Shown: positions 8,350-32,007 of the stretch, in pieces | Position numbering within the stretch: the stretch's first letter is position 1 | Layout of the letters: each line of letters starts with the position of its first letter | Assembly (NCBI GenBank): GCA_902806215.1 | Contig: CADCVT010000137.1 | Coordinates: forward strand, 1-36,593 | DNA: 36,593 nucleotides | Direction of reading: 5' to 3' | From: an uncultured Solirubrobacteraceae bacterium | Lineage (GTDB): Bacteria; Actinomycetota; Thermoleophilia; Solirubrobacterales; Solirubrobacteraceae | The notes under the pieces: model-generated | The model's database searches: none | Told to the model about the DNA's origin: nothing | What the model saw: the letters and a program-made list of their open reading frames with translations, nothing else | Made by a program: the position numbers and the translations under genes

Positions 8350-8373
8350 GCTGCCGCATCGGATGCACAGAAC

Positions 8374-9345
8374 ATGCGCTATCTGATCACCGGCGGGGCG
8401 GGGTTCATCGGCTCGCACCTTGCCGACGAGCTGCTCAGCCGCGGCCACCGCGTCCACGTCCTCGACGACCTGTCGACGGGATCGATCGCGAACATCGCGC
8501 ACCTCAAGCCCCGGCCGGACTTCGAGTACACGATCGACTCGTGCGAGTCCCCCTCGGTCGTCGCGGAGCTCGTCGACGAGTCCGACGTCATCTACCACCT
8601 CGCCGCCGCGGTGGGCGTCGAGCTGATCGTGCAGAGCCCGGTTCGCACGATCGAGACCAACGTCCGGTGCACGGAGGTCGTGCTCGACCGTGCGAACCGC
8701 AAGCAGAAGCCGGTGTTCATCGCCTCGACGAGCGAGGTGTACGGCAAGTCGCCGGCTCTGCCGTTCCAGGAGGAGGGCGACCTCGTGCTCGGAGCGACCA
8801 GCAAGGGCCGCTGGGCGTACGCATGCTCGAAGGCGATCGACGAGTTCCTGGCGATCGCGTACTGGAGGGAGCGCAAGCTCCCCACCGTCGTCGCGCGGCT
8901 GTTCAACACCGTCGGCCCTCGGCAGACGGGCCGGTACGGCATGGTCATCCCGAACTTCGTCCGGCAGGCCCTCGCCGGGCAGCCGATCACGGTCTACGGC
9001 GACGGCGCGCAGCAACGCTGCTTCTGTCACGTGCATGACGTCGTGCAGGCGCTCGCGGGGATCATGGAGCACGAGGAGGCGTACGGCGAGGTCTTCAACA
9101 TCGGCGCCGAAGAGGAGATCTCCATGCTCAAGCTCGCCGAGCGCGTGCGCGATCGCGCCGACTCGGACTCCGAGATCGTCCTGCTGCCCTATGACCAGGC
9201 GTACGGCCCGGGCTTCGAGGACATGGCCAGGCGCATCCCCGACCTCACCAAGATCAACGCGGTCCTCGGGTGGGCGCCGCAGCGCACCCTGGACGAGATC
9301 CTCGACGACGTGCTCGACCACCAGCGCGCCGGCGCGGGAGCCTGA
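8374..9345 (+). CDS. Extended-SDR NAD-dependent epimerase/dehydratase, ArnA/UXS (UDP-uronate decarboxylase)-like subtype
   Basis: Track ORF (323 aa) starting MRYLITGGAGFIGSHLADELL. Motifs are ASTSEVYG, RWAYACSKAIDEFLAIAY (Y...K) and RLFNTVGPRQ. The STSEVYG / RW.Y..SK pattern resembles the ArnA C-terminal and UXS group. Confidence 0.85.
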   Translation: MRYLITGGAGFIGSHLADELLSRGHRVHVLDDLSTGSIANIAHLKPRPDFEYTIDSCESPSVVAELVDESDVIYHLAAAVGVELIVQSPVRTIETNVRCTEVVLDRANRKQKPVFIASTSEVYGKSPALPFQEEGDLVLGATSKGRWAYACSKAIDEFLAIAYWRERKLPTVVARLFNTVGPRQTGRYGMVIPNFVRQALAGQPITVYGDGAQQRCFCHVHDVVQALAGIMEHEEAYGEVFNIGAEEEISMLKLAERVRDRADSDSEIVLLPYDQAYGPGFEDMARRIPDLTKINAVLGWAPQRTLDEILDDVLDHQRAGAGA

Positions 9346-9394
9346 CGGCCCCGGCCCGCATCGATCGCGCTCGCAGACCGTTTGAGTCCGGGAC

Positions 9395-13196: not shown

Positions 13197-13257
13197 CACG
13201 CCAGAGTCCTCGCCTTCGTTCCCCGCGGGGTCACCGCCATCAAGCCTCACCAGTCTG

Positions 13258-19442: not shown

Positions 19443-19538
19443 TCGGCGGCGGGACAGGCGGCCATCGTATCCGGAGCATGCCGGGCTTCGCGGGGCGTGT
19501 GACCGCGCCGGGGCTGCCTCTGCGGCAGGATGGAGGGC

Positions 19539-21410
19539 ATGTGTGGCATCTCCGGCTTCGCCGGTCCCGGCGCCGCGGGCCGTCGCGATCTGGCGGACCG
19601 CCAGATCGCGCTGCTCGATCACCGCGGCCCGGACGCGCACGGCGTCTTCGTGAAGCCCGATGCGGTGCTCGCGCAGAACCGCCTGGCCGTCATCGACCTC
19701 GTCTCCGGCGACCCGCCGCTCACCGACGAGTCAGGGGACGTCGGGGCGGTGCTCAACGGCGAGATCTACAACTTCCAGGCCCTGCGCGAGGAGCTGGCCC
19801 ACGCCGGGCACCGCTTCTCCTCGCGCGGTGACACCGAGGTGCTCGCCCACCTCGCCGAGGAGGAGGACGATCCGCGCGAGCTCGCCCGGCGCCTCGACGG
19901 CATGTTCGCGTTCGCGACGTGGGACGAGCGGCGTCGGCGCCTCCTGCTCGGCCGCGACCGCCTCGGCAAGAAGCCGCTGTACTACGCGATGACCTCCGAC
20001 GGTCAGCTCGTCTTCGCCAGCGAGATCAAGGCGCTGCTCGCGCACCCCGGCGTTCCGCGCGAGTTCGACCCGTCAGTGCTCCCCTCCTACCTGCTGTACG
20101 GCTACGTCCCGTCGCCCGGCACGGTGTACGGGGGCATCCAGTCGGTGCCACCGGGGGCGGTGCTCGCCTTCACGCCGGGCGGCGAGCCACGGGTCGTCTC
20201 GTACTGGGAGCCGCCCCTCGTCGGCCACAACGCCGGCGCGCACGCCGACCTGTCGCTTCGCGCGGCGGCCGCCGGCGTCCGCGAGCGGCTCGAGCGCGCG
20301 GTGGAGCGGCGGCTTGTCGCCGACGTCCCGCTGGGCGCGTACCTCAGCGGCGGCATCGACTCGAGCGCCATCGTGGCCCTGGCCGCGGACCGGGCGGACC
20401 ACCGCCTGAGCACGTTCACCATCGGCTTCGAGGACACCGACGGGTTCGACGAGCGCCCGTACGCGAAAATCGTGGCGCGACGCTACGGGACCGACCATCA
20501 CGAGTGGGTGGTGCAGCCCGAGGCCGTCGACCTCGTCGACCGCCTCGTGTGGCACTACGACCAGCCGTTCGGGGACTCGAGCGCGATCCCCACCTACCTG
20601 CTCGCCGAGCTCACCCGCAGGCACGTTACCGTCGCCCTGTCGGGCGACGGAGGCGACGAGCTGTTCGGCGGCTACGAGCGGTTACTCGGCGGCCTGCTCC
20701 TCGCGCGCTACAACGCGGCACCGTCGCTCCTGCGGCGGGGCGTCGACAGGACGCTCGAGGCGGCGGCGTCGAGCCCCGCCCTCGACCGGGCGCGCCGCTT
20801 CACGGCCAGCGCGGATCGTGGGCTGCCGATCGCCTACGAGAGCTGGGCCGGGTTCGTCTCGGAGGCGGACCGCGACCAGCTGCTCCGTGGGCAGGACGGC
20901 GCGGGTGCCGCGCACGCGCGGATCTGGGAGGCTTCGGCCGGCGCCGCGACGCTCGACCGCCTGCTCGACCTGAACCTGAGGACCTACCTCCTGGGCGACC
21001 TGCTGCCGAAGGCCGACCGGATGAGCATGGCCCACGCGCTCGAGGTGCGATCGCCGTTCCTGGACGCCGAGCTCCTCGACTACGCGGCCCGCCTGCCGCC
21101 CGCGCTGAAGATCCGCGGGCCGGTGCTGAAGCGGGTCCTCAAGGCGGCCGTCGCCGACCTGCTCCCAAGCGAGATCGTCAAGCGGCGCAAGAGGGGTTTC
21201 GGGGTGCCCGTCGACCGGTGGTTCCGGACCGACCTGCGCGAGTACGTCACGTCGCGCCTCACGGCCCCCGACGCGCGTCTCAAGGAGTGGCTGGACCCCG
21301 GCGCCGTCGACGCGCTCGTCGCCGATCACGTGAGCGGCCGGCGCAACAGCGGGCACTCGCTGTGGACGCTCCTGACGCTGGAGGTTTTCCTGCGCGAGCG
21401 GATCGGCTAG
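19539..21410 (+). CDS. asnB: Asparagine synthase (glutamine-hydrolysing) family amidotransferase, WbpS-like role likely
   Basis: I chose ATG 19539 so that the product starts MCGISG, with Cys2 as the Ntn glutaminase nucleophile; the track start at 19530 adds MEG. Motifs are RGPD, NGEIYN and GDTEV in the glutaminase domain, and the PP-loop LSGGIDSS plus LSGDGGDELFGGY in the synthetase domain. Confidence 0.92.
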   Translation: MCGISGFAGPGAAGRRDLADRQIALLDHRGPDAHGVFVKPDAVLAQNRLAVIDLVSGDPPLTDESGDVGAVLNGEIYNFQALREELAHAGHRFSSRGDTEVLAHLAEEEDDPRELARRLDGMFAFATWDERRRRLLLGRDRLGKKPLYYAMTSDGQLVFASEIKALLAHPGVPREFDPSVLPSYLLYGYVPSPGTVYGGIQSVPPGAVLAFTPGGEPRVVSYWEPPLVGHNAGAHADLSLRAAAAGVRERLERAVERRLVADVPLGAYLSGGIDSSAIVALAADRADHRLSTFTIGFEDTDGFDERPYAKIVARRYGTDHHEWVVQPEAVDLVDRLVWHYDQPFGDSSAIPTYLLAELTRRHVTVALSGDGGDELFGGYERLLGGLLLARYNAAPSLLRRGVDRTLEAAASSPALDRARRFTASADRGLPIAYESWAGFVSEADRDQLLRGQDGAGAAHARIWEASAGAATLDRLLDLNLRTYLLGDLLPKADRMSMAHALEVRSPFLDAELLDYAARLPPALKIRGPVLKRVLKAAVADLLPSEIVKRRKRGFGVPVDRWFRTDLREYVTSRLTAPDARLKEWLDPGAVDALVADHVSGRRNSGHSLWTLLTLEVFLRERIG

Positions 21411-22558
21411 CGCCGTTCGAGGAGCTGGTCGTAGAGCGCCTCGACGTCGGCGACGAGCCGGTCGACCCCGAACCGCTCGCGCACGTGGGCCCGCGCGTGC
21501 GCCCCCATGCGCTCGCGCAGGGCCGGATCGGCGGCCAGCTCGGCCAGCGCCGCCGCGAACCCGGCAACGTCGTCCGCGGACACGACGAACCCGGCCCCTG
21601 GGACGACGACGTCGCGCACGCCGCCGACATCGGTCGCGACGAGTGGCCGGCCCGCGGCCGCCGCCTCGATGAGCGATACGGGCGTGCCTTCGCTGGCCGA
21701 GCTGAGGGCGCCGACGTCGGTGGCGGCGGCGATCGCCTCGAGGTCCCGGCGATAGCCCAGGAACGTCGTGTGGCGCTCCAGGCCGACCGCGCGGACCTGC
21801 TCCTCCAGCTCGGCACGCAGCGCCCCGTCGCCGACGACCGCGAGGTGCAGGCGCGCACCGTCGCGGCGAGCCTCGGCAACGGCGTCGACGAGTCGGTCGA
21901 CGCGTTTGATCGGCACGAGTCGTCCGACGAACGTGACGACCACATCGTCGTCGGCCACGCCGAGCTCGGTGCGCACGGCCCCGCGCGCCCCGGGCTCGAC
22001 GCGGTCGAACCGGGCGAGATCGAGGCCGAGCGGCACGACGCGGAAGCGCCGGGCCGGGGCGATCCGCAGCTCGACGAGATCGTCGACGGTCGCTCGGCTG
22101 ACGCCGACGAGGCAATCGGTGACGAGACCGAGCGCGCGCTCGATCGACCGGAAGATCGCGTTGCGCGCTGGGCCGAAGTACCCGCGCAGCACGTGGCCGT
22201 GGTACGTGTGGACGATGATCGGGCGCCCACGGCCGGCGAGGAGAGCGGCGACCCTCCCCAGCGTGCCCGCCTTAGCCGCGTGCGTGTGGACGATGTCCGG
22301 CCGGAACCGCCGGATCTCGCGGACGAGCCGCCACAGCGCCCGGGCGTCCGCGGCCGGAGAGAGCTCCGGCCCGAGGAAGGGCACCGAGATCCACCGAGCC
22401 CCAGAGCGGTCGGCCAGCTCGTCGTACGACTCCTCGCCTGGGCCGACGGACCCGGCCAGCAGCAGCGACTCGTAGCGCGAGCGGTCCAGGCGGCCGCCCA
22501 GGAGGCTGACGTGGTACGCGGGGCCGCCGAGGTTCATGCGGGCGATGATGCGCAGCAC
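21407..22558 (-). CDS. GT4-family (GT-B fold) glycosyltransferase
   Basis: GTG 22558 gives (M)LRIIARMNLGGPAYHV, a typical GT4 N-terminus; ATG 22537 is an alternative. The upstream 265 codons of track ORF 21407..23353 overlap the next gene out of frame. The C-terminal motif region is SASEGTPVSLIEAAAAGRPLVATDVGGVRDVV. Its stop shares a CTAG with the asnB stop. Confidence 0.88.
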   Translation of the reverse strand: MLRIIARMNLGGPAYHVSLLGGRLDRSRYESLLLAGSVGPGEESYDELADRSGARWISVPFLGPELSPAADARALWRLVREIRRFRPDIVHTHAAKAGTLGRVAALLAGRGRPIIVHTYHGHVLRGYFGPARNAIFRSIERALGLVTDCLVGVSRATVDDLVELRIAPARRFRVVPLGLDLARFDRVEPGARGAVRTELGVADDDVVVTFVGRLVPIKRVDRLVDAVAEARRDGARLHLAVVGDGALRAELEEQVRAVGLERHTTFLGYRRDLEAIAAATDVGALSSASEGTPVSLIEAAAAGRPLVATDVGGVRDVVVPGAGFVVSADDVAGFAAALAELAADPALRERMGAHARAHVRERFGVDRLVADVEALYDQLLERR

Positions 22559-22602: not shown

Positions 22603-23553
22603 TCAGGGCGCCACCGGCAGGTCGGTCGCCCCGCTCAGCGCTTCGTAGGTCCGGCGGAGGCCCTCCCCGAAGCCGATCGACGGCCGATACCCGAGGATCT
22701 CCGTCGCGCGCGAGATGTCGGCCAGCGAGTGGCGGACGTCCCCGGTTCGAGGCTCCGCGTGCTCGACATCGACCGTGAGGTTCAGCAGCGCGCCGATCTC
22801 GACGACCACCTCGTTCAGCGTGACGCGCTCGCCACACGCGACGTTGAAGACGCCGCCGCCGGGGGCGCGGCCGCTCATCGCCAGCAGGTTTGCGTCCACC
22901 ACGTTGTCGATGTAGGTGAAGTCGCGCGACTGCTCGCCGTCGCCGAAGATCGTCACGCTGCGGCGGGCCGCGGCGGCCTCGAGGAAGCGCGGGATGACCG
23001 CGGCGTACTGCGAGTTCGGATCCTGGCGCGGCCCGAAGACGTTGAAGTAGCGCAGGGCCACCCCCTCGACGCCGTAGACCTGGCTGAACGAGCGGCAGTA
23101 GCTCTCGCCGGCGAACTTCGCGACCGCGTAGGGCGAGATCGGCGCCACCGGCATGTCCTCGCGCTTCGGGAGCGCTGGGTTGGCGCCGTACACCGACGAC
23201 GACGACGCGTAGACGACGCGCTCGACGCCGGCGTCGCGCGCGGCGAGGAGCACGTTGAGCGTCCCGGTGACGTTGACGGCGTTCGACATCAGCGGGTCCT
23301 GCACGGATCGCGGGACGGACGGGAGCGCCGCCTGGTGGAGGATCAGCTGGCACCCGCGCGTTGCGTTTGCCACGCGCTCGTAGCTCTGGACGTCGCCCTC
23401 GACGAGGTCGACCTCACCGGCCACGTGCGCGAGGTTCTCCCGCCGCCCGGTCGCGAACGAATCGAGGACGCGGACGTCGTGGCCCTCGCGGAGGAGGCGA
23501 TCGACGAGGTGGGATCCGATGAACCCTCCTCCGCCTGTGACGAGCACTTTCAC
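22603..23553 (-). CDS. UDP-N-acetylhexosamine(uronate) C4-epimerase, WbpP/TviC-like extended SDR
   Basis: Track ORF (316 aa, GTG start) starting (M)KVLVTGGGGFIGSHL. Motifs are HQAALPSVPRSVQDP, NAVNVTGTLNVLLAA, YASSSSVYG, SPYAVAKFAGE (Y...K), RYFNVFGPRQDPNSQYAAVIPRF, GDGEQSRDFTYIDNVV and D.RHSLADIS. From memory of the family, this string of motifs matches the WbpP/TviC group closely. Confidence 0.88.
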   Translation of the reverse strand: MKVLVTGGGGFIGSHLVDRLLREGHDVRVLDSFATGRRENLAHVAGEVDLVEGDVQSYERVANATRGCQLILHQAALPSVPRSVQDPLMSNAVNVTGTLNVLLAARDAGVERVVYASSSSVYGANPALPKREDMPVAPISPYAVAKFAGESYCRSFSQVYGVEGVALRYFNVFGPRQDPNSQYAAVIPRFLEAAAARRSVTIFGDGEQSRDFTYIDNVVDANLLAMSGRAPGGGVFNVACGERVTLNEVVVEIGALLNLTVDVEHAEPRTGDVRHSLADISRATEILGYRPSIGFGEGLRRTYEALSGATDLPVAP

Positions 23554-23593: not shown

Positions 23594-24349
23594 GTGGGCC
23601 GCGTCCTGAGCAGCGAACCGCACCCTCACAACGTCGAATGGACGCCCCGGAAGATCGCGCGGTTCTGGGGCTGGTGGGGCGACCAGATGGGGTCGCAGGC
23701 CTTCTTCAGCCTGACCCACGGCCCGCGGCTGCTCGACATCGCCGGGCGCTCGGTCCGGTTCGACGGCGCCCGCGTGGTCGACGTCGGCTGCGGTCCAGGG
23801 CACCTGCTCGACCACCTGCTCGAACGCGGCGCTCGGTGCTCCGGCGTCGAGGTGGCCGAGACGCTCGTCGCCGAGGCGAACGCCCGCCTCGAGGGGCGCC
23901 CCTGCTTCGAGGGGGTCTCCCAGGGTTCCGTCGACCACCTGCCGCTGCCCGACGGCATCGCCGACGTCGCGTGCTCGCTCGAGGTCGCGGAGCACCTGCT
24001 CGACGACCAGCTCGACGCCCACGTCGCGGAGATGAGGCGGATCCTCCGGCCGGGCGGCCACCTCGTCCTGACCACGCCCAACCGCGAGGACCTGCGTGCC
24101 GAGCACGCGCTGTGCCCGGACTGCGGCGCGGTCTTCCACCGCATCCAGCACGTTCGGGCGTGGACAGCCGAGTCCCTGACCGCCGTCGCCGGCCGCGCCG
24201 GCTTCGAGCCTGTCCGCGTCGTCACGACGGTCATGGCGCCGACACGGACGCAGGTGGTGCTGAACGTCGCCCGCCGGCGGCTGCGGCCTCTGGTCGGGGC
24301 CCCTCGGCTGCCGCTGCCCCAGCTCATCTACATCGGCCGGCGCGACTAG
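23594..24349 (+). CDS. Class I SAM-dependent methyltransferase
   Basis: GTG 23594 is the first in-frame start after the divergent epimerase in track ORF 23519..24349. Motif I is VVDVGCGPGHLLDHL. The rest of the core is DHLPLPDGIADVACSLEVAEHL...RILRPGGHLVLTTPN. A CPDCG..FH segment suggests a small zinc-ribbon-like insert. Confidence 0.8.
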   Translation: MGRVLSSEPHPHNVEWTPRKIARFWGWWGDQMGSQAFFSLTHGPRLLDIAGRSVRFDGARVVDVGCGPGHLLDHLLERGARCSGVEVAETLVAEANARLEGRPCFEGVSQGSVDHLPLPDGIADVACSLEVAEHLLDDQLDAHVAEMRRILRPGGHLVLTTPNREDLRAEHALCPDCGAVFHRIQHVRAWTAESLTAVAGRAGFEPVRVVTTVMAPTRTQVVLNVARRRLRPLVGAPRLPLPQLIYIGRRD

Positions 24350-25680
24350 CGAGCCGCTCCCGAGGCGCGTGGCCTGCGCAGCTGGCCGACGACCGACCGG
24401 ATCACGCCGGGCGGTGGCGGACGGAGCACCGCGCGGACAGGCGTCCCGGTCTGGGCGCGGAGGACCAGCAGCATGAGGCCGGCGAGCGTCCAGTAGGCGA
24501 TGGCCGACGCGATCGCCGCGCCGACGATGCCGAAGGGCGGGATCAGCAGCACGTCCAGGATGATGCTGAGAACCACCACGGACACCGCGGCGAGCGACAC
24601 ACGCGAAGGCGACGCCAGGCGGATGAGCAGCCCCCGCACCGGCCCCTCGATCGCCAGCCCGATCGCCCCGAACGCGAGGATGATCAGCGGCACGACGCTC
24701 TCCGTCCACTCCGATCCGTACAGGATCGCGATCAGGGGATACGCGGCCGCGGCGAGGAGGCTCGCCGCCGCTACCGCTAGCAGCCCCGCGAAGCGCGCCA
24801 GCTGCACGGTGTACTCGATCGCCCCCGCGTCGTCGTCCTCGGTCTGGCGGTTCAGGCCGGCGAGCGCCAGGCTCGACGCCACGAGGAACGCCACCTCTGC
24901 GATCGACGTGGACACGGAGTAGCGGCCTGCGGCGGCGGTTCCGATCAGGACGCCGACGAGCACGATGTCGAGCCGCATGATGAGGAACGCGCCGAGAGCG
25001 GTGGGGTGCAGCCACACCCCGAGGCCGAGCGCCCTCCGCCCCAGCGTGCCGGGCCACATCGGCAGCAGCGACCGCCAACCGACCCGGCGCGCGAGCGCGA
25101 GCGCCACGCCCCCGGTCCCCACGGCGAGCGCTCCCGAGATGACGGCAAGGACCGTGGCGGGCGCTACCGGTCCGACGACGACCTCGAGCAGCACCAGGGT
25201 TCCGAGCTGGACGCCCGCGCTGAACGCCATGGCGAGCCCGTAGGGCACCACGCCTCCGATGCGAAGGAGCACCGAGGCCCAGAGGAAGCTCGCCGAGGCG
25301 AGCGGGACGCCGGTTGCGGCGATGGCCAGCTCGGACACCGAGACGCCCTCGGGCAGGGCGGGGCGGATCGCCACTGCGAGCGCCGCATAGCCGACGAGCC
25401 CGACCGCGCCGACGAGCGCGCAGCCCGAGGAGGTCAGCCGCACGGCGGTCGGCGCGTCGAGCTCGCGCCGTGCCAGCAGTCTGCCGATCCCGCTCTCGAC
25501 CGACAGGTGCGTGGCGGTGCTGAGGATCGCCGCGAAGGTCGCGGGCAGGACGTACTCGCCGCGTCCAGCAGGACCCAGCACGCGGGCCGCCGCGACGTTG
25601 AAGCCGAACAGCAGCGCGAACTGCAGCAGCCGCAGGCCGATGAGCGCCGCGCTGCGCGATACGCCGTTGGGCGCCATCAT
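24346..25680 (-). CDS. Wzx-type oligosaccharide flippase (MOP superfamily, polysaccharide biosynthesis protein)
   Basis: ATG 25680 (MMAPNGVSRSAALIGLRLLQFALLFGFNV...) lies within track ORF 24346..25788; the 36 upstream codons would overlap the divergent methyltransferase. The product has about 12-14 hydrophobic segments, the Polysacc_synt-like N-terminus and a ...GIVGAAIASAIAYW C-terminal helix. Its stop shares a CTAG with the upstream methyltransferase stop. Confidence 0.8.
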   Translation of the reverse strand: MMAPNGVSRSAALIGLRLLQFALLFGFNVAAARVLGPAGRGEYVLPATFAAILSTATHLSVESGIGRLLARRELDAPTAVRLTSSGCALVGAVGLVGYAALAVAIRPALPEGVSVSELAIAATGVPLASASFLWASVLLRIGGVVPYGLAMAFSAGVQLGTLVLLEVVVGPVAPATVLAVISGALAVGTGGVALALARRVGWRSLLPMWPGTLGRRALGLGVWLHPTALGAFLIMRLDIVLVGVLIGTAAAGRYSVSTSIAEVAFLVASSLALAGLNRQTEDDDAGAIEYTVQLARFAGLLAVAAASLLAAAAYPLIAILYGSEWTESVVPLIILAFGAIGLAIEGPVRGLLIRLASPSRVSLAAVSVVVLSIILDVLLIPPFGIVGAAIASAIAYWTLAGLMLLVLRAQTGTPVRAVLRPPPPGVIRSVVGQLRRPRASGAAR

Positions 25681-25687
25681 CGGGAGG

Positions 25688-26542
25688 ATGGCAGCAACGT
25701 CAGAACCGGCGAGAAGCGCGACCGACCTCCTCCACGCAACCCGCCGCCGCGAGCTCGACCTGCTGTTCGGGCGCGTCCCTCCCGGCACGTTCGCGACCGG
25801 CCTGGAGCTCGGTGCCGGGGACGGCTACCAGTCCACGCTCCTGACGCGATGGGTCCGGCGGCTGACCAGCACCGACTACTGGGGGCCGCCGCCCGGCGAG
25901 CCCTCGGACGCGGTCGAGTACCGGCGATGCGACGCGGAGCGGGTGGACGAGGAGCTCCCCGACCGGCGATTCGACCTCGTCTTCTCGTCGAACATGATGG
26001 AGCACGTCCCCGACCCGCAGCGGGTCCTCGACGGCACGAGGCGCGTGATGGCGCCGGGAGCTCTCGCGGTGCACGTGATGCCGACCCCGTTCTGGAAGGC
26101 GACGCACCTCGCGGGGTTCTGGCCGAGCCGCGCGCGGACGGTCATCCGCGCCCTCCGCCGGCGACAGGCTGCGCTGGCCCCGCTGGCGACGGACGTGAAC
26201 AACCCGCACAAGGACGAGGGCTCCCCGCCGCGCCGCGCGCTCCTCGTCCCGCCGCCGCACGGCGCGGACGAGAACACGCTGGCCGAGCTCTGGCGATTCA
26301 GCCGGCGGCGCTGGCGCAGCGAGTTCGAGCGGGCCGGTTACGTGGTGGTGGCCGAGATCGCCGGCCCCGTCACGTCGGGGTACGGCTTCGGGCTCGACGC
26401 GACAAGGCGGCGGCTCGAGGTTGCCGGCGTGTCGTCGGAGACCGGGTTCGTGGTACGTCCAGCCGGCGACCCGTCGCCGTACGAGCCCTTCCTGACGGGG
26501 GATGCGCCGCGAACGGGCGCCGCACCCGTGCCGGGCCGCTAA
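25688..26542 (+). CDS. Class I SAM-dependent methyltransferase
   Basis: ATG 25688 (MAATSEPARS...) lies within track ORF 25511..26542. Motif I is GLELGAGDGYQS. The core is RFDLVFSSNMMEHVPDPQRVLDGTRRVMAPGALAVHVMP. The earlier part of the track ORF is antisense to the flippase. Confidence 0.8.
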   Translation: MAATSEPARSATDLLHATRRRELDLLFGRVPPGTFATGLELGAGDGYQSTLLTRWVRRLTSTDYWGPPPGEPSDAVEYRRCDAERVDEELPDRRFDLVFSSNMMEHVPDPQRVLDGTRRVMAPGALAVHVMPTPFWKATHLAGFWPSRARTVIRALRRRQAALAPLATDVNNPHKDEGSPPRRALLVPPPHGADENTLAELWRFSRRRWRSEFERAGYVVVAEIAGPVTSGYGFGLDATRRRLEVAGVSSETGFVVRPAGDPSPYEPFLTGDAPRTGAAPVPGR

Positions 26543-26595
26543 CCTCGACCGACCCGACGTCCTGCTCTAGGTGGGAGCGGCGGAAGCCGTCCTCC

Positions 26596-27633
26596 ATGCC
26601 GCTCGAAGCCCGCCTGCTCACCGGCCTCGCTCTCGCGCTCGCTCTCGTCTACTGGACGACGCCGATCGCGATCCGCGTCGCGCACCGGTTCGAGTTCTAC
26701 GACAAGCCGATCGGCTACAAGGGCCATCGCGCCCCCACGCCCTACCTCGGCGGCAGCGCCGTCGTGCTCGGGTTCGTCGCCACGGTGCTCGCGCTCACCG
26801 GCGACTGGCAGCGCACGACGCCGCTGGTTGCCGGGGTCCTCGTGCTCTGGGTCGTCGGCACCGTCGACGACCGGCGACAGGTCGCGCCGGGCTACCGCGT
26901 GGCCGTCGAGTGCGCCATAGCCGCAGCGCTCTGGGCGACCGACCTCGGCTGGTCGCTCGGCCTGGGAGACGGCGTCGACTTGGTCGTCACGACGCTCTGG
27001 ATCGTCGGCGTCGTCAACGCCTTCAACCTGTTCGACAACCTCGATGGCGCGGCCAGCACGATGGCGCTCGTCGTCGCGTCCGCCGTGGCCGTCCTCGGCG
27101 TCGTCGACGGTGACGTCTGGGTCGCCGTCACGGCCGCCGCGCTGTGCGGTGCGTGCATCGGCTTCCTCCCGCACAACTTGGCGCTGCCCGGCGCCCGCAT
27201 CTTCCTCGGCGACGGCGGCAGCATGCCTGTCGGCTTCGCCGTGGCGGCGCTCGTGATGATCGGCGCGTCGAGCGCGGCGGCAGAGTGGCAAGCGCTCGTC
27301 CTGGGGCTGCTGCTCGTCGGCATCCCGGCCCTGGACACGACGCTTGTCGTCGTCTCGCGCCGTCGCCGCGGGATCTCGCTGCTCACCGGTGGGCGCGACC
27401 ACCTCACGCACCGCACGCTCGAGCGCGTCCGCACGGCCCGCGCCGTCGCGGTCGCCCTCGGCGGCACGCAGGCGCTGCTGGCGGCCCTGGCGATCGTCTC
27501 GGTCCGCGGGGGATCCTTGCTGCTCGTCGTCGCCGTCGCGCTCTACCTCGCGGGGGTCGTCACTGCGATCGCCGTCCTCGACGCGCCGGGTGCCAGGCCG
27601 GAGCCGACCGGGGCGCGGCCGGGCGCGACGTCG
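26596..27633 (+). other. PNPT (Glycos_transf_4, WecA/WbpL/TagO-like) domain of the fusion ORF
   Basis: Motifs are VGTVDDRRQ (Asp-Asp at about codons 91-92), NAFNLFDNLDG (27016-27048), FLGDGGSMPVGF (from 27208) and LLTGGRDHLTHRTLER. About 10-11 hydrophobic segments are present. The domain ends in a Pro/Gly/Ala linker, GARPEPTGARPGATS. Confidence 0.85.
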
Positions 27634-29625
27634 ATGGAGGCGCCCGGCCGCGGGCCGCTCCTCCCGTGGGCGGCGCTCGCGCTCGCGCCGCTCGGGCTCG
27701 CCATGGCGCTCAGCCCATTCGCGGGCGGCTTCTACGACTCGGACGTGTGGACGCCCGCGGGGGTCGTCCTGTGCATCCTGCTGATCACGACGATCGTCGC
27801 TCGGACCGGCACGCTGCCGCGGCCCGCCATCGCCGCCGTCGGGCTGCTCGCGGCGCTCGCGGCCTGGTCGCTGGCCTCGGCGAGCTGGGCGGACTCGGTG
27901 GAGCAGGCCGTCGTCACCGGAAACCGCTGGGCGGTCTACGCGGTCCTCCTGGGGCTGCTCGTCGCGCTCGTCCGGAACGAGCACGCCTTCACCTGGCTGC
28001 TGGCGTCGGTCGCGGTTGGCGTCCTCGTCGTCGCGGCGGTCGTCGTCGCGCGCCTCCTCGACGGCAACGGCGAGGCGCTGCTCATCTCGGGGCGGCTCGA
28101 GGAACCCCTCGGCTACGCCAACGCGCAGGCGAGCGTGTTCCTCCTCGGCCTGTGGCCGTGCATGGCGCTCGCCGAGCAGCGCCGGAGTGCAGCGCTCGCG
28201 GCGGTCGGCATGACCGGCGCGACCCTCCTCGCGGCGATGATCGTGCTGTCCCAGTCGCGCGGCGTCACCATCGCTGCGATCGCGTCGGCCGCAGTCGTGT
28301 TCGCGTTCGTCCCCGGCCGCGTGCGCAGGGCCTTGGCGTTCGGGGTCCTCGGGCTGTGCCTGCTGCCCGCGTTGTCCGCCCTGCTCGACGTGTTCCCGAT
28401 CGGGCTGCGGGGCCGTGTCCCGGCCGACGTCCTGCAGGACGCCGGCACGGTCGCGCTGCTGTCGGCCGGCGCGGCCGGTCTGCTGTGGCTCGCCGCGAGC
28501 GCCGGCGCCGCCCGGCTGCACCGGCTGCAGTCGCCCGCGGTGGCCTGGACGCGGCGGGCGGTCGCGGCGGGGATCGGGCTCGCGGCGCTCCTGGCCGCGC
28601 TCGTGGCGGTCGTGTCGTTCGGCGAGGTCCGCGGCTATGTCGACCGCCAGTACGACGCCTTCGTGACGGTTGGCGGCGCGACCGGCGAGCCGACGGCGTC
28701 GCGTCTGGCCTCGGGCTCGGGCAACCGGTACGACTACTGGCGCATCGCCGTACGCGCCTGGCATGAGGACGAACTGCGCGGGATAGGCGCCGGGAGCTAC
28801 GACCGCCTGTACTTCGCGCAGCGGACCACGACCGAGGACATCCGCCAGCCGCACAGCCTCCAGCTCCAGACGCTGGCCGAGACCGGGCTCGTCGGGCTCC
28901 TCCTGCTCGCCGCGTTCCTGATCGCGGTCGCGGTCGGCGCGAGACGGCACATCGCCGCTGCGCGACGCGTGCGCTCGCGGGCGCCGTTCCTGACGGCGTC
29001 GGTCGGCGTCTTCGTCGCGTGGCTCGTGCACACGAGCGTCGACTGGCTGCACCTGCTCCCCGGCCTCACCGGTATCGCGCTCGCCGCGGCCGCAGTCCTC
29101 CTGGCTCGGCCGGACCACGAGGCCGCGGAGGCGCGGGGCGTCGTCGCGCCCGCGTCGCCGCGGCGGCGGGCGCCGCAGCTGGCCCTCGTCGGGCTCGGCG
29201 CGCTCGCGCTGATGGCGAGTGCGGTCAGCCTCAGCCGGCAGGCGCTCGCCGAGCACTATCGCGATCAGGCGCAGTCGGCGCTCGCGACCCGGCCGGCGGA
29301 GGCGCTCGAGAGGTCCAATCGCTCGCTCCGCCTCGACGCCGACGCGGTGCCGACCTATTACGCCAAGGCCGCCGCGCTGGCGCGGCTGGGCGAGGGCGCG
29401 GCCGCCGAGCGCGTTCTCACGGATGCCACGCGGCGGGAGCCGGCCGACTTCGTGACGTGGGCGCTGCTGGGCGACCTCGCCGTCCGGCGCGGCGACCTGT
29501 CCCGGGCGCAGCGCCACTACCGTCGCGCCTCGAGCCTCAACCCGCGCGACCCGGGGCTGCGGGCGCTGGCCGACGACCCGCGCCTGGCGGCGCAGCGGCT
29601 GGCCGGCGCGGCTCCCACCGGATAG
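26596..29625 (+). CDS. Fusion protein: WecA/MraY-family polyprenyl-phosphate HexNAc-1-phosphate transferase + O-antigen-ligase/Wzy-like polymerase domain + TPR repeats
   Basis: ATG 26596 lies inside the 1539-aa track ORF 25006..29625, whose upstream 530 codons are a shadow over the flippase and methyltransferase genes. There is no in-frame stop from 26596 to the TAG at 29623-29625. The sub-features below list the domain motifs. Confidence 0.85.
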   Translation: MPLEARLLTGLALALALVYWTTPIAIRVAHRFEFYDKPIGYKGHRAPTPYLGGSAVVLGFVATVLALTGDWQRTTPLVAGVLVLWVVGTVDDRRQVAPGYRVAVECAIAAALWATDLGWSLGLGDGVDLVVTTLWIVGVVNAFNLFDNLDGAASTMALVVASAVAVLGVVDGDVWVAVTAAALCGACIGFLPHNLALPGARIFLGDGGSMPVGFAVAALVMIGASSAAAEWQALVLGLLLVGIPALDTTLVVVSRRRRGISLLTGGRDHLTHRTLERVRTARAVAVALGGTQALLAALAIVSVRGGSLLLVVAVALYLAGVVTAIAVLDAPGARPEPTGARPGATSMEAPGRGPLLPWAALALAPLGLAMALSPFAGGFYDSDVWTPAGVVLCILLITTIVARTGTLPRPAIAAVGLLAALAAWSLASASWADSVEQAVVTGNRWAVYAVLLGLLVALVRNEHAFTWLLASVAVGVLVVAAVVVARLLDGNGEALLISGRLEEPLGYANAQASVFLLGLWPCMALAEQRRSAALAAVGMTGATLLAAMIVLSQSRGVTIAAIASAAVVFAFVPGRVRRALAFGVLGLCLLPALSALLDVFPIGLRGRVPADVLQDAGTVALLSAGAAGLLWLAASAGAARLHRLQSPAVAWTRRAVAAGIGLAALLAALVAVVSFGEVRGYVDRQYDAFVTVGGATGEPTASRLASGSGNRYDYWRIAVRAWHEDELRGIGAGSYDRLYFAQRTTTEDIRQPHSLQLQTLAETGLVGLLLLAAFLIAVAVGARRHIAAARRVRSRAPFLTASVGVFVAWLVHTSVDWLHLLPGLTGIALAAAAVLLARPDHEAAEARGVVAPASPRRRAPQLALVGLGALALMASAVSLSRQALAEHYRDQAQSALATRPAEALERSNRSLRLDADAVPTYYAKAAALARLGEGAAAERVLTDATRREPADFVTWALLGDLAVRRGDLSRAQRHYRRASSLNPRDPGLRALADDPRLAAQRLAGAAPTG
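27634..29110 (+). other. O-antigen ligase / Wzy_C-like polytopic domain of the fusion ORF
   Basis: It begins at an internal in-frame ATG (27634, MEAPGRGPLLPWAALALAPLG). Motifs are VLSQSRGVTIAAI, NRYDYWRIAVRAWHEDELRGIGAGSYDRLYF and QPHSLQLQTLAETGLVGLLLLAAF, which are characteristic of the O-antigen ligase/polymerase family. The boundaries are approximate. Confidence 0.8.
29248..29600 (+). other. TPR-like repeats at the C-terminus of the fusion ORF
   Basis: AEHYRDQAQSALATRPAEALERSNRSLRLDADAVPTYYAKAAALARLGEGAAAERVLTDATRREPADFVTWALLGDLAVRRGDLSRAQRHYRRASSLNP reads as about three 34-residue helix-turn-helix repeats with the A/L/G/Y spacing of TPRs. Confidence 0.65.
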
Positions 29626-29662
29626 CGGAGGCGTGTCGCGAGCGAGCGGCCATACTGGACTG

Positions 29663-30172
29663 ATGCGACGCTGCCGCCGGAGCCTGCTTGCCGCCCTCGT
29701 CCTCCTCGCGCTCGGGGTCGCGGACGCCTCGGCGCAGGAGGACGGAGTCACGGTGGACCCGGACTCTCCGAGCGGCAAGGAGTACGCGATCCCGCTGGAC
29801 CGTGCCCGCCGCGACGCCTCGCCAACGCCGCGCGGCGAGGCGCCCCAGGCCCCGCTCTTCGGCGAGGGAGTTGGTGATCGTCCCGCGGGCGGCGACGGCG
29901 GTGCCGCCGCCGCGGGAGGCTCCGCGCCCGGAGCGTCCGGTGACCGCAATGGCGACGGCAGCGCGGGCGACGGCGGGACCGCGGAGGGCGGCGCCGGCGA
30001 GAACGGCTCGGCGGCACCCGGTGACGACGAGGCGACGCCGGAGGCCCTCCGCGCGCAGGTGCCGACGCCCGGTGCCGCGACCGGCACCCTGGCACTCATC
30101 GGCGGAGGCAGCGGGATCGCGCTGCTCGTCGGCGGCCTGGCCGGCCTCGCGCTGCGCCGGCGCTCGCAGTGA
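29663..30172 (+). CDS. Secreted Gly/Ala/Asp-rich protein with C-terminal TM segment and Arg tail (sorting-signal-like)
   Basis: ATG 29663 gives MRRCRRSLLAALVLLALGVADASAQE, a signal peptide; the track start is GTG 29633. The middle is low-complexity. The C-terminus ...VPTPGAATGTLALIGGGSGIALLVGGLAGLALRRRSQ has a motif-TM-basic-tail layout. Third positions are G/C-rich. Confidence 0.55.
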   Translation: MRRCRRSLLAALVLLALGVADASAQEDGVTVDPDSPSGKEYAIPLDRARRDASPTPRGEAPQAPLFGEGVGDRPAGGDGGAAAAGGSAPGASGDRNGDGSAGDGGTAEGGAGENGSAAPGDDEATPEALRAQVPTPGAATGTLALIGGGSGIALLVGGLAGLALRRRSQ

Positions 30173-30182
30173 CGCCGCTGCT

Positions 30183-31277
30183 TCAGCCGCGCCTGAAAGC
30201 GTCGAACGCCGGCTTGCGCCGGCCGTTCGCGTCAAGGAGCCCCCAGCGGATCTCGTCGCGCTGCGCGTTCGGCTGCTCGTCGTAGAGGCCGAGGTAGCCG
30301 AATGTGTAGATCCGCTTCCAGCCTCGTGCGACCCGCAGCGCGGAGCTGATCCAGCTCGCCTGCGTCCGGCGTGTGACGAAGAAGTTGAACTCGCGGTTGC
30401 GGCGGTCGGTCGGCAGCGAGTACTCCGACAGGAAGAGCCGCAGCTTCTTGCCGCGCCCCACGCGGTAGCGGTCGAGCCACCGGGCGAGCGTGTCGAGGTC
30501 GCCGAAGTCGGCGAAGCCGTTGCCGAGCGGGCTTGCTCGCAGGTCCGGGCGCCGGAGCGAGAACGGGTTGTGGCCGTAGAGGTCCATACGCGGCGCGCGA
30601 CCGTTCGGAAGGCGCATCGCCCGGATGAAGTTCAGCGGGCGGACCGTTCCGACGGTGTACGTGTTGCCGCCGATCACCAGGTTGGCGCGGTTGAGCGCCT
30701 TCAGCCGTCCGTACGCCTCGTCGAGGAGTTGCGCGTACAATCGCGGCCCGCGCGCGCCGCTTCCACGCAGAGGCCCCTTCCTGTCGCTCTGGAGGGGCTG
30801 GAAGTTGCTCTCCTTCGACGGTTCGCCCCAGATCATCCAGTGCCGCACGCCGGGGTACCGGCGGGCAGCGGCCTCGAGGAAGTCGGCGTAGTCCTTCGGA
30901 TCGTTGGGCGTCCACCGCGCGTCGCGCCCTCCGTTGGCCCAGCGCGGCGTGCTCGTGACGAGCAGACTCACGCTCATCCCATGGCCCGGGGCCTGGGCGG
31001 CGGCGAGGTCGACGTCCGCCGGCCAGCGGTAGGCCGGGTCGGCCGGGTCCCGCGGCGTCGCCGGCCGTGCCGAGGCGATGGCGCTCCACGAGAGCGTCGT
31101 CTGGTACAGGCCGACCCCGAGATCGCGATAGATCGGGAACTGCGATTTCCCGTCGCGCACCACCGGGCCCCAGATCGCCTTCTTGCGCGACGGCGCGGCG
31201 TCCGCGATCGGCGTCACGGCGCCGCCGAACAGGGTGACCAGCAACAACCCGATCACGAGCACGCGCATCTGTGCCAC
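30183..31277 (-). CDS. Secreted TIM-barrel glycoside hydrolase candidate (clan GH-A-like, PslG-type role)
   Basis: Track ORF (364 aa; GTG 31277, alternative ATG 31268 giving MRVLVIGLLLVTLFGG...). A signal peptide is present. Motifs are HWMIWGEPSK (acid/base Glu in a W.EP context), LFLSEYS (candidate nucleophile Glu) and DPKDYADFLEAAARRYPGV, typical of (beta/alpha)8 glycosidases. The exact GH family is not determined. Confidence 0.7.
   Translation of the reverse strand: MAQMRVLVIGLLLVTLFGGAVTPIADAAPSRKKAIWGPVVRDGKSQFPIYRDLGVGLYQTTLSWSAIASARPATPRDPADPAYRWPADVDLAAAQAPGHGMSVSLLVTSTPRWANGGRDARWTPNDPKDYADFLEAAARRYPGVRHWMIWGEPSKESNFQPLQSDRKGPLRGSGARGPRLYAQLLDEAYGRLKALNRANLVIGGNTYTVGTVRPLNFIRAMRLPNGRAPRMDLYGHNPFSLRRPDLRASPLGNGFADFGDLDTLARWLDRYRVGRGKKLRLFLSEYSLPTDRRNREFNFFVTRRTQASWISSALRVARGWKRIYTFGYLGLYDEQPNAQRDEIRWGLLDANGRRKPAFDAFRRG
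30203..30229 (+). terminator. GC-rich hairpin 31 nt downstream of the 29663..30172 stop, embedded in the 3' end of the convergent hydrolase gene
   Basis: The sequence cgaacgccggc-ttgc-gccggccgttcg forms an 11-bp stem with one bulged C. There is no T-tract. It lies inside coding sequence of 30183..31277(-), so a terminator role is speculative. Confidence 0.25.
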
Positions 31278-31437
31278 TGTAACTGGGGGAATCGCTCGCC
31301 CGACCGCATCGCACAGGGATGTGGCGTGTTTGCGGTTTCGATAGGGTAGAAAAATTGGTCAGTCAGCTGTCACGCGGGGGGCGGGCGGTGGGTCTCACAG
31401 CAGAGCGAGCGTCGAGTTCGCCCAATGGAGGAACGTT
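31278..31437. promoter_or_regulatory. Largest and most A/T-rich intergenic region; presumed divergent promoter region
   Basis: This 160-nt spacer separates the divergent starts 31277(-) and 31438(+). It contains gatagggtagaaaaattggtcagtcagctgtcac. TAGGGT (31342-31347, TANNNT form) and its complement TACCCT are candidate -10 elements, but I could not pair them with a convincing -35. GGAGGA at 31427-31432 sits 5 nt before TTG 31438. Confidence 0.3.
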
Positions 31438-32007
31438 TTGAAGAGGCAAGTGACAGCAGTCGTCGTGGTCTTCGGCGCAGGCGCCGGTGCGCTCGCGGGC
31501 GGCGGTGCGTTCGCCGGGGCGCAGCAGCAGGCCCAGCAGCCGCCGGTCCAGTCGCAGCCGGCGGTGCGCCAGGCGCCGCGGAACGTGACGATCAACGTCA
31601 ACCCTCGGGTTGATCGCCGGCGCCCGTGGCGGTTCACGGTCTCCGGCCGGGTCAACCTGCCGGCGCCGGGCCTGGTGTGCCCGCCCGGACAGACCAGCGG
31701 CTACTACTGCCTGCCACTGGCGCGCGAGCGTGCCTGCGATCGGGCTAGGGTCGCCATCCGCTTCAAGGGCGGACCGCGCACCCGCCAGACGATCTCGACA
31801 CGGCGGTACCGCACCCGGATCGGGGGGACTGCGCAGCAGCTTCCGTTCTGCACGTATCGCGGCACCGTGTCGTTCAACGTGGCGCGCCGCCTGCGGCCGA
31901 CAGGGCGCGTGCAGGTCGACGTCCGTTTCCTCGGCAACGCGTACTACGGGCAGAAGTCGAGCCCGCGGCGGACCGCTCGCGCCGTCGGCGTGGGCCGCAG
32001 GCGCTAG
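31438..32007 (+). CDS. Secreted hypothetical protein, four Cys, Arg-rich C-terminal half
   Basis: Track ORF (189 aa). The TTG start has the best Shine-Dalgarno in the window. The signal peptide is MKRQVTAVVVVFGAGAGALAGGGAFAGA. A Gln/Pro-rich linker follows, then a beta-rich Cys-containing domain. The last ~82 aa have about one Arg in four. I recognise no family. Confidence 0.65.
   Translation: MKRQVTAVVVVFGAGAGALAGGGAFAGAQQQAQQPPVQSQPAVRQAPRNVTINVNPRVDRRRPWRFTVSGRVNLPAPGLVCPPGQTSGYYCLPLARERACDRARVAIRFKGGPRTRQTISTRRYRTRIGGTAQQLPFCTYRGTVSFNVARRLRPTGRVQVDVRFLGNAYYGQKSSPRRTARAVGVGRRR

Follow-up and report, generated by a model that had tools for sequence, protein, structure and literature searches.

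A conserved fusion of a WecA-type priming transferase to a WaaL-like Wzy_C domain and a TPR tail in a Solirubrobacteraceae polysaccharide cluster

Introduction

A physical complex of the enzymes at the ends of the lipid carrier cycle (initiating transferase, flippase, and polymerase or ligase) has been long discussed and poorly documented. Here, we describe a single gene in which a transferase of the first kind is joined to a relative of the last: positions 26,596 to 29,625 of the forward strand of a 36,593-nucleotide stretch of DNA (the window) from an uncultured Solirubrobacteraceae bacterium (GenBank assembly GCA_902806215.1, contig CADCVT010000137.1) encode a protein of 1,009 amino acids (aa) in which a polytopic phosphoglycosyl transferase (PGT) is followed by a WaaL-like Wzy_C domain and a tetratricopeptide repeat (TPR) tail. 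The parts belong to known families, and the combination is undescribed in the literature that we found, though it is catalogued in databases under generic names. A first-pass annotation, made by a model from the sequence of the window, had flagged the fusion and knew of no characterized example, and the literature likewise yielded no description of a PF00953+PF04932 fusion. The Thermoleophilia, to which the host belongs, are abundant soil bacteria whose envelopes are almost unstudied, and we found no literature on Thermoleophilia envelope glycans.

With respect to the first half of the protein, the closest described systems are WecA and TagO, which are stand-alone enzymes. Escherichia coli WecA spans the membrane with 11 transmembrane (TM) helices, running from an outside N-terminus to a cytoplasmic C-terminus, and carries Asp motifs at D90/D91 and at D156/D159 in NxxNxxDGxDG. 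The N-terminal part of the fusion shares the Pfam family and fold, the aligned motifs, 11 predicted TM helices, a predicted cytoplasmic C-terminus, and a setting in a glycan cluster with Wzx; it differs in running on into a second enzyme of ~680 residues and in having HLTH instead of the E. coli HIHH.

For the second half, the O-antigen ligase WaaL is the nearest structural relative. Residues R215, R288, H338, and D389 are critical in E. coli WaaL, and ligases have a sequence pattern in common, H[NSQ]x9Gxx[GTY], with an essential His that ends a large outward-facing loop (bioRxiv 10.1101/2022.10.31.514599). WaaL (7TPG) is the only specific fold match for the middle domain, with Arg, Arg, and Asp in similar local contexts, but it has 12 helices, whereas the fusion has 14 predicted core helices, an extra helix, and the TPR tail. 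The genes for the O-oligosaccharyltransferases (O-OTases) TfpO, TfpM, and PglS adjoin the genes for their acceptor proteins, and to our knowledge no O-OTase is fused to a priming transferase. The Wzy_C domain of PglL, PglS, TfpO, and TfpM has an essential conserved His, and PglL and PglS carry a larger C-terminal periplasmic domain that may recognize protein substrates (PMC9829042). TfpM is the best NCBIfam match and the oligosaccharyltransferase 9rmk the best PDB sequence match of the middle domain, with scores far under the family cutoffs; the fusion locus, too, encodes a small secreted protein next door, but this is not a pilin, and the extra domain of the fusion is a TPR.

TacL, the pneumococcal lipoteichoic acid ligase, belongs to the O-antigen-ligase family. 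It is a Gram-positive WaaL-like ligase that transfers a polyprenyl-linked polymer to a membrane anchor and not to lipid A-core (PMC5727136). TacL is stand-alone, has a glycolipid acceptor, and is without TPRs; no Gram-positive WaaL-like enzyme with a non-lipopolysaccharide acceptor is known to be joined to an initiator or to bear a TPR tail. Fusions of pathway enzymes are common. In the specific case of priming transferases, bifunctional monotopic PGTs (BiPGTs) are natural fusions with acetyltransferases or glycosyltransferases of the same pathway (PMC11257628). These belong to the monotopic superfamily and have cytoplasmic partners acting in the next steps, whereas the protein described here joins a polytopic PGT to an outward-facing enzyme of the last carrier-dependent step. 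Finally, PEP-CTERM/exosortase loci also hold an O-antigen-ligase-like protein. The fusion locus recalls them through an AsnB-like match, a weak TPR match to PrsT (NCBIfam), and a small protein whose TM helix and Arg tail look like a sorting signal; it has no exosortase gene and no PEP motif, and the matches are all below cutoff, making this a resemblance only.

Results and discussion

A genuine and widely conserved fusion gene

The fusion is a genuine protein-coding gene. Its parts are listed here in window coordinates, with the evidence for the whole gene being the continuous open reading frame (ORF), the G+C content at third codon positions (GC3), full-length homologues, and an AlphaFold2 model.

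26596..29625, + strand: whole fusion gene, 1,009 aa (PGT, linker, Wzy_C, extra TM helix, TPR)
26596..27582, + strand: polytopic PGT domain of the WecA/MraY family (aa 1-329); predicted to have 11 TM helices, N-terminus out, C-terminus in
27583..27663, + strand: cytoplasmic Pro/Gly/Ala/Arg linker, aa 330-356; predicted disorder, low conservation
27664..29103, + strand: Wzy_C/WaaL-like domain, aa 357-836; 14 predicted TM helices; PF04932 and WaaL fold match
28615..28857, + strand: large predicted extracytoplasmic catalytic loop, aa 674-754, ending in H753; invariant residues and His motif
29170..29238, + strand: extra predicted TM helix, aa 859-881 (model helix 859-895), taking the chain back across the membrane
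29239..29622, + strand: TPR tail, aa 882-1009; ~3.5 repeats, predicted outside

As read in the first-pass annotation, a single frame runs from ATG 26596 to the TAG at 29623-29625 with zero in-frame stops between, and every sequence signature quoted there is present where it was placed: VDDRR (aa 90-94), NAFNLFDNLDG (141-151), GDGGSMPVG (205-213), and GGRDHLTHR (265-273) in the first half, and SQSRG (552-556), NRYDYWRIAVRAW..GIGAGSY (710-735), and QPHSLQLQTLAETGLVG (751-767) in the second. Long open frames are cheap in this window because its G+C content is ~73%, and the frame of the fusion gene is indeed open upstream back to 25006, another 1.6 kb before ATG 26596. The GC3 plot shows this frame to be coding (0.92-0.98) from ~26540 to 29500 only, with values staying in that range across the linker stretch (27550-27700) without a dip or frame switch. 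The stretch upstream is a methyltransferase gene (25511-26542, + strand), which lies in a different frame and ends at 26542. The N-terminus of the fusion, MPLEARLL, is the consensus N-terminus of 44 homologues, and this, the onset of the GC3 signal, and the upstream methyltransferase together indicate that the limits 26596-29625 are right. The open frame at 25006-26595 was rejected as a coding extension, being a high-GC shadow ORF with no Pfam match and no GC3 signal; many other antisense and shadow ORFs of >150 aa occur across the window.

Searching 5.8 billion proteins gave 884 matches. The best 120 clusters are all 973-1,050 aa long, with 51-59% identity at ~100% query coverage, all carrying PF00953 and PF04932 and many also TPRs; their sources are mutually independent assemblies (ENA, JGI, NCBI, and Logan), with the named ones assigned to Solirubrobacteraceae or Thermoleophilia. 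Scanning one genome for each GTDB species, we obtained 342 relatives; apart from contig-truncated copies, the 80 top-ranking loci cover query residues 1 to ~1000. These 80 loci are distributed over Solirubrobacterales, Conexibacteraceae, Baekduia, and Thermoleophilaceae and include the closed chromosomes OY970068.1 and OY970283.1. Of the 77 loci having the PGT motif, 63 continue in one unbroken ORF to the QPHS ligase motif downstream, and most of the other 14 have either an ORF of ~1000 aa with a variant motif or a cut at the contig end. One metagenome-assembled genome (JAEMRF01) has two fusion copies on different contigs (L038 and L057, 46-48% identity to the query), so that some genomes may have paralogous systems. 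The first-pass annotation had left it to a search whether relatives, and databases in general, hold uncharacterized fusions of the same architecture; they are abundant, with at least 120 clusters and 80 species genomes, and bear the label "MraY family glycosyltransferase" or "O-antigen ligase family protein."

An artifact, in which an assembly or sequencing frameshift or a lost stop had joined two neighboring genes, is effectively excluded, being a vanishingly improbable source of this ORF. High-GC DNA does yield long spurious frames, as the 1.6 kb open upstream illustrate, and frameshifts in this gene do occur in the long-read assemblies of some relatives (L062, L084). Against this stand the continuous GC3 signal in an unchanged frame; the uninterrupted architecture of ~1000 aa shared by the independent protein clusters and species genomes, which is found in closed chromosomes and in both short-read and long-read assemblies; and the fact that the frame is kept although the linker ranges from 24 to 83 aa among 45 homologues. 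Neither GC3 nor homologue architecture reveals the linker frameshift about which the first-pass annotation had been cautious, and the orthologues, which it had considered might be uniformly split, are not uniformly so, with the full-length fusion being conserved in many of them.

We modeled the full protein with AlphaFold2 on a 45-sequence family alignment (mean predicted local distance difference test score [pLDDT], 81.7; predicted template modeling score [pTM], 0.75). The linker is disordered in this model (pLDDT <50 across aa 328-354), and its column identity in the 45 homologues is 0.31, well under that of the PGT half (0.77), the Wzy_C core (0.64), and the TPR tail (0.70). An internal ATG at 27634 had been suggested as a source of a separate second product; it encodes M347, and as Met occupies this position in only 1 of the 45 sequences, there is no conserved internal start. 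The fusion is thus maintained, with the linker as a flexible tether.

Domain identities and catalytic residues

All three kinds of model named for checking in the first-pass annotation (PF00953, PF04932, and TPR) match the 1,009-aa product. Pfam Glycos_transf_4 (PF00953) matches aa 77-223 (E 7.9e-27, 94.6 bits versus a cutoff of 27), and the NCBIfam model TIGR02380 (ECA_wecA) matches aa 24-303 (E 6.6e-31, 107.7 bits, under the equivalog cutoff of 326). When aligned to E. coli K-12 WecA by BLASTP, the protein is 26% identical along 274 aa (E 4e-24), and the motifs of the fusion and WecA pair as GTVDDRR/GALDDRF, NAFNLFDNLDG/NAFNMVDGIDG, FLGDGGS/FMGDAGS, and RDHLTH/RQHIHH; the WecA HIHH aligns to HLTH, with H269 and H272 kept and Thr as the third residue. 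Residues D91, D92, N141, N144, D147, D150, D206, D268, H269, and H272 are invariant in the family alignment of 45 sequences. In Foldseek searches of the PDB, the N-terminal third matches MraY (4j72, 5ckr, and 8cxr; E 1e-5 to 1e-6; target-normalized TM-score [TMt] 0.68-0.72) as well as human GPT (6bw5/6bw6). Judged by these matches, the N-terminal half is a putative polyprenyl-phosphate N-acetylhexosamine (HexNAc)-1-phosphate transferase of the PF00953 family with the MraY/GPT fold. It is a family member, though not demonstrably a GlcNAc-specific WecA orthologue, its TIGR02380 score lying under the equivalog cutoff and its HIHH motif not being intact.

Pfam Wzy_C (PF04932) matches aa 641-771 above its gathering score (E 4.6e-11, 43.2 bits versus a cutoff of 31.7). 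The best NCBIfam match of the middle domain is the O-OTase TfpM (NF058641; aa 706-834, E 5e-6, 25.8 bits versus a cutoff of 600). Against PDB sequences, the whole-protein profile retrieved TPR and MraY chains only, and the middle-domain profile gave a single weak match, 9rmk (E 0.021, 65 columns). Foldseek against the PDB returned WaaL (7tpg_B) as the only specific match of the middle domain (E 2.6e-3, probability 1.0). In a model of the middle domain only, built on a 12-sequence alignment, the catalytic loop is less well predicted (pLDDT <50 at domain residues 344-409); again WaaL alone was matched, which does not separate ligases from polymerases.

Within the large loop, R703, R711, D713, Y714, W715, G729, G731, G733, R743, E747, Q751, P752, H753, and S754 are invariant in the family alignment. 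The ligase His motif is present as H753SLQLQTLAETGLVG and is found in 45/45 family members; E. coli WaaL has it at H338, and it is missing from the E. coli polymerases WzyE and WbbH. By chance, the motif turns up in 45 of 2,000 shuffles of the fusion protein. Local contexts of the other critical residues are also similar between E. coli WaaL and the fusion (LTQTR215A/LSQSR555G, GAR288LAMYEIG/GNR711YDYWRIA, and SD389VIIW/VD816WLHL), with R555, R711, H753, and D816 all being invariant in the family alignment. From their sequences, both halves look catalytically competent.

Predicted topology and the TPR tail

Topology was derived from the helices of the full-length model, with the N-terminus placed outside as in E. 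coli WecA. This gives 26 predicted TM helices: 11 in the PGT half, 14 in the Wzy_C half, and 1 extra. The 15 helices after the linker exceed the "about a dozen" hydrophobic segments of the first-pass annotation. In the model, all catalytic loops and the C-terminus of the PGT half lie on the cytoplasmic side, as does the linker. The catalytic loop of the Wzy_C half (81 residues, aa 674-754) faces outside, together with the remaining conserved loops of that half. An Arg-rich loop predicted to be cytoplasmic (aa 837-858) precedes helix 859-881. The positive-inside rule is followed, with 20 Lys+Arg residues in short inside loops versus 3 in short outside loops. The linker would thus join the two halves without topological conflict and with both correctly oriented, a point that had been singled out for checking.

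The TPR tail is predicted to be extracytoplasmic. Pfam TPR_14 and TPR_2 match at aa 954-989 (TPR_14, 24.4 bits versus a cutoff of 23.5), profile matches to consensus TPR proteins reach E values down to 2e-26, Foldseek retrieves consensus TPR (CTPR) and OGT TPR structures, and many residues of the tail are invariant. The TPR-like repeats of the first-pass annotation are therefore present, their number in the model being ~3.5 instead of about three. Its suggestion that the tail might scaffold the whole machine needs amending: given the predicted position outside, any scaffolding would involve extracytoplasmic partners and not the cytoplasmic glycosyltransferases. In this position the tail resembles, by analogy, the extra C-terminal periplasmic domain of PglL and PglS.

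Fused and unfused relatives

Searching the middle-domain profile against 1.84 billion cluster representatives, we obtained 1,691 clusters at E <= 1e-30. Among the best 150 of these, ~110 are proteins of ~620-680 aa that start 10-40 residues before the first domain helix, i.e., stand-alone Wzy_C-TPR proteins, and ~25 are fusions. Three loci with stand-alone proteins (L086, L087, and L088) have a separate PF00953 gene for 343-368 aa in the same cluster; in L087 and L088 it is the immediate, divergent neighbor, and in L086 the epimerase gene lies in between; a fourth (L085) has no PF00953 gene within 10 kb. Database counts of fused versus split forms need caution, because frameshifts make a false "triple fusion" (L062) and a false "split" (L084). 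The former (10203-13562), which would include the small protein encoded downstream, has frameshifts that put the TPR region out of frame, and the latter, in which PF00953 and Wzy_C span 3,002 nt (6925-9926), is probably a frameshifted fusion. Four other candidates (P0122, P0137, P0139, and P0198) were rejected as stand-alone proteins, their sequences beginning inside the PGT domain.

The nearest relatives of the stand-alone protein P0127 are fused (50-57% identity) and interleaved with other stand-alone proteins, and a crude neighbor-joining tree of 160 middle domains has at least 20 changes between fused and unfused states, a count biased upward by assembly and gene-calling artifacts. As fused and unfused forms interleave both by similarity and in the tree, the junction is evolutionarily labile, and since close relatives work as two adjacent genes, the covalent link is unlikely to be mechanistically essential. 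The two activities would seem to belong together, with the covalent bond itself being dispensable. A carrier leaves a ligase as the diphosphate on the outer face and needs dephosphorylation and flipping before reuse, and the fusion protein has no domain for either. The direct hand-back of the released carrier to initiation, proposed in the first-pass annotation, is weakened by this and by the unfused orthologues.

The fusion can be read as a "Rosetta stone": hundreds of Thermoleophilia make a single polypeptide of the PGT and the WaaL-like enzyme, which relatives encode in adjacent genes. We take this as genomic evidence for a functional, and probably also physical, coupling of the two steps, with the labile covalent link probably adding efficiency and not new chemistry, and the fusion offers a tractable single-protein system for studying such coupling.

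Ligase or polymerase

On the basis of domain identities, catalytic-residue conservation, conservation of the fusion, and gene neighborhood, together with the predicted topology, we read the protein, with middling confidence, as a bifunctional membrane enzyme that serves a Wzx-dependent pathway for a surface polysaccharide and has a second half of the ligase/oligosaccharyltransferase type. On the cytoplasmic face, the WecA-type domain would transfer HexNAc-1-phosphate from a UDP-sugar to polyprenyl phosphate, starting a lipid-linked glycan that the neighboring glycosyltransferases would extend and the neighboring Wzx would flip. The WaaL-like domain, through its outside catalytic loop, would then most likely take the finished glycan from its polyprenyl diphosphate carrier and pass it en bloc to an acceptor. 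The last helix would put the TPR tail outside, where it would probably dock a partner or the acceptor, with the small type-I membrane protein encoded downstream as the best candidate. Fusion would mainly secure co-expression, 1:1 stoichiometry, and co-localization of the first and last carrier-dependent steps and would not be obligatory. Such a protein raises the question of what role a WaaL-like ligase has in a lineage presumably without lipopolysaccharide, for which the outside TPR and the small membrane protein are candidate partners.

Several observations argue for ligase chemistry. The best profile, sequence, and structure matches (TfpM, 9rmk, and WaaL) are all ligases or O-OTases. The protein is 45-60% identical across an order despite varying glycosyltransferase content, whereas Wzy proteins usually diverge together with the repeat unit. 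The adjacent small secreted protein recalls transferase-acceptor gene pairs. Furthermore, the cluster with the conserved Wzy_C-TPR also holds a second, more variable Wzy_C protein (569-782 aa) in L085-L088 as well as in four loci with the fusion (L004, L014, L043, and L067), which suggests two distinct Wzy_C roles in one pathway, and this variable paralogue could be the polymerase. Its coordinates in the four loci with stand-alone proteins are as follows.

L085, 7401-9110: second Wzy_C protein
L086, 14811-16661: second Wzy_C protein
L087, 1822-4143, - strand: second Wzy_C protein
L088, 3863-6211, - strand: second Wzy_C protein

Other observations weigh against this assignment. Pfam Wzy_C holds both polymerases and ligases and does not tell their chemistries apart, and the similarity to WaaL 7tpg_B is modest (TMt 0.48 with the domain model and 0.51 with the full model). 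Aligning the middle domain to E. coli WaaL, WzyE, and WbbH with hhalign gave no significant alignment, the single-sequence templates being too weak, and because nothing was found against WaaL, the Arg and Asp equivalences with the E. coli enzyme are drawn from local context only. The extracytoplasmic position of the TPR tail is itself a prediction, and the acceptor is hypothetical, the lineage presumably being without lipid A-core. We saw no lipopolysaccharide genes in the window, and because the host is a Thermoleophilia-like actinobacterium, the acceptor must differ from lipid A-core if the domain is a ligase. Neither the window nor L081 or L082 has a Wzy_C protein other than the fusion, and no counterpart of the second Wzy_C protein was found in the window. 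These three loci do hold a PGT, glycosyltransferases, and Wzx, and no other recognizable polymerase. A PslG-like hydrolase, typical of exopolysaccharide systems in its secreted form, and a GNVR/AAA_31 Wzc-like gene in L084 (the only locus in which one was seen) point to a long polymer.

These last points, and the polymerases among the members of the Pfam family, would fit a different role for the Wzy_C domain, namely, that of the repeat-unit polymerase (Wzy) of a Wzx/Wzy exopolysaccharide pathway. Under that alternative the fusion would pair one initiation with one polymerization, for which a 1:1 stoichiometry would be natural, and the TPR tail and small protein would form a co-polymerase or a scaffold for chain length or export. 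We consider this possible but rather doubtful. No polymerase-specific family (WzyE PF06899, O-ag_pol_Wzy PF14296, EpsG PF14897, and TIGR04370) was matched in Pfam and NCBIfam at E values up to 0.01, although polymerases are very diverse and the lack of a family match is compatible with polymerase function. The full WaaL-type Arg/Arg/His/Asp pattern with its motif, missing from WzyE and WbbH of E. coli, speaks against a polymerase, as do the identity retained across the order while the glycosyltransferases vary and the second Wzy_C protein in several of the same clusters; a separate protein with 9-10 TM helices at 9395-10657 could be the polymerase of the window. A further alternative accepts that the fusion is made but holds that only one half is catalytic, with the other a degenerate scaffold, or that the polypeptide is split post-translationally or by internal initiation. 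The disordered linker would be exposed to proteases, an ATG is present at 27634, and the unfused orthologues indicate that the halves can function apart; but in neither half do the catalytic residues vary among 45 diverse members, M347 is not conserved, and the sequence gives no hint of a processing site, which makes this alternative quite improbable.

A conserved small partner gene

Immediately downstream of the fusion gene lies a small gene.

29663..30172, + strand: small, conserved partner gene; ATG 29663 is the likely start, with the ORF being open from GTG 29633; aligned with the counterparts in L082-L086

The encoded protein consists of a signal peptide (AxA-Q), an N-terminal peptide that reads V.DPDSPxGKEYxxPLxxAR...PLFGEGV, a spacer that is disordered and rich in Gly, Ser, Ala, and Pro, and, at the C-terminus, a Gly-rich TM helix with an RRR tail. 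The N-terminal peptide is almost invariant, and the Ser in DPDSP is near-invariant. The gene trails every fused or stand-alone gene examined in L082-L086, as it does the fusion in the window. Across the related loci, a hidden Markov model built from six copies and an end-to-end distance rule place it next downstream, on the strand of the preceding gene, in 66 of 81 evaluable loci; another 10 have it at a different position within the locus. A strict regular expression found it in only 13 loci, and a first adjacency rule undercounted it, since stop-to-stop ORFs start inside the upstream gene. There are 108 database homologues, all "hypothetical," and a scan of Pfam and NCBIfam assigned no family, giving only sub-threshold models of C-terminal sorting signals. 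Scanning 25400-31500 for promoters and terminators revealed none, including between the fusion and the small gene, a result that is uninformative for high-GC actinobacterial promoters.

Because its N-terminal peptide and the TPR tail are both predicted to lie outside the membrane, the small protein is a candidate TPR ligand; it would be the best one at hand, and possibly the acceptor. One step further, Wzy_C-TPR might be a protein-directed glycan transferase, in which the TPR docks the N-terminal peptide of the small protein, the WaaL-like site attaches the lipid-linked oligosaccharide or polysaccharide to that protein, and the surface polymer is thereby membrane-anchored through it, with the PGT, fused or adjacent, completing a three-component machine. 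We hold this proposal to be speculative and unlikely as it stands. If true, a surface polymer of a monoderm actinobacterium would be anchored via a small protein and not via lipid A, a glycolipid, or peptidoglycan.

Genomic setting

Pfam and NCBIfam matches show the window to be a polysaccharide cluster, with a UDP-HexNAc-type dehydrogenase, four short-chain dehydrogenase/reductase (SDR) epimerases/dehydratases (one closest to TviC), three methyltransferases, GT1, GT4-family, and GT2 transferases, an AsnB-like amidotransferase, a Wzx flippase, and an ABC exporter. The genes that recur in related loci or bear on the pathway are these.

8374..9345, + strand: SDR epimerase/dehydratase; orthologue (65-73% identity) directly beside the fusion in most related loci
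19530..21410, + strand: AsnB-like amidotransferase (Pfam, NCBIfam); recurs with the fusion in related loci
21407..22558, - strand: GT1 (Pfam/NCBIfam); recurs with the fusion in related loci
22603..23424, - strand: TviC-like epimerase (Pfam/NCBIfam); recurs with the fusion in related loci
24346..25788, - strand: Wzx-type flippase (Polysacc_synt_3; Pfam E 2e-10), immediately upstream
30183..31277, - strand: secreted PslG-like (GH39-like) putative polysaccharide hydrolase, 364 aa; N-terminal signal-like helix, no Pfam match

The usual flanks of the fusion in relatives are the epimerase (65-73% identity), the TviC-like epimerase, GT1, the amidotransferase, and the secreted protein of ~364 aa, with the remaining glycosyltransferase set varying between related loci. 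L081 and L082, too, have Wzx genes along with the fusion. In NCBIfam, the AsnB-like protein is closest to the XrtA/PEP-CTERM system amidotransferase (535 bits, under the cutoff of 817), and its presence together with the TviC-like epimerase and the UDP-HexNAc-type dehydrogenase suggests amidated HexNAc-uronic acid sugars. The 30183-31277 protein has the exopolysaccharide hydrolase PslG as its best PDB match (E 2.5e-4), around a W-x-W-x-EP motif (WMIWGEPS), and its homologues occur in at least 32 related loci, usually adjoining the fusion gene.

The longest ORFs of Wzx (24346-25788, - strand) and of the methyltransferase (25511-26542, + strand) are divergent and overlap by ~280 nt at their 5' ends, so at least one of the two starts must lie further in. 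The protein at 9395-10657 (+ strand; 420 aa) has 9-10 hydrophobic helices and a sub-threshold PMT_2 (GT-C) match (E 0.004), with a homologue seen in only one related locus (L076); possible identities are a GT-C glycosyltransferase and the repeat-unit polymerase that is otherwise missing.

Two further genes lie inside the cluster. The one at 14332-16989 (+ strand) encodes 885 aa, with a hydrophobic, signal-like segment at the N-terminus and bacterial Ig-like (Big_13) domains; the one at 17034-18317 (+ strand) encodes a beta-helix protein resembling pectate lyases. They are not conserved beside the fusion in relatives, although L088 has a Pect-lyase_RHGA_epim protein, and they could be surface proteins or polysaccharide-processing enzymes. 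At the cluster edge, a gene for 1,023 aa (1518-4589, - strand) with weak DUF3604/PHP-associated matches adjoins a penicillin-amidase gene (3-1481, - strand).

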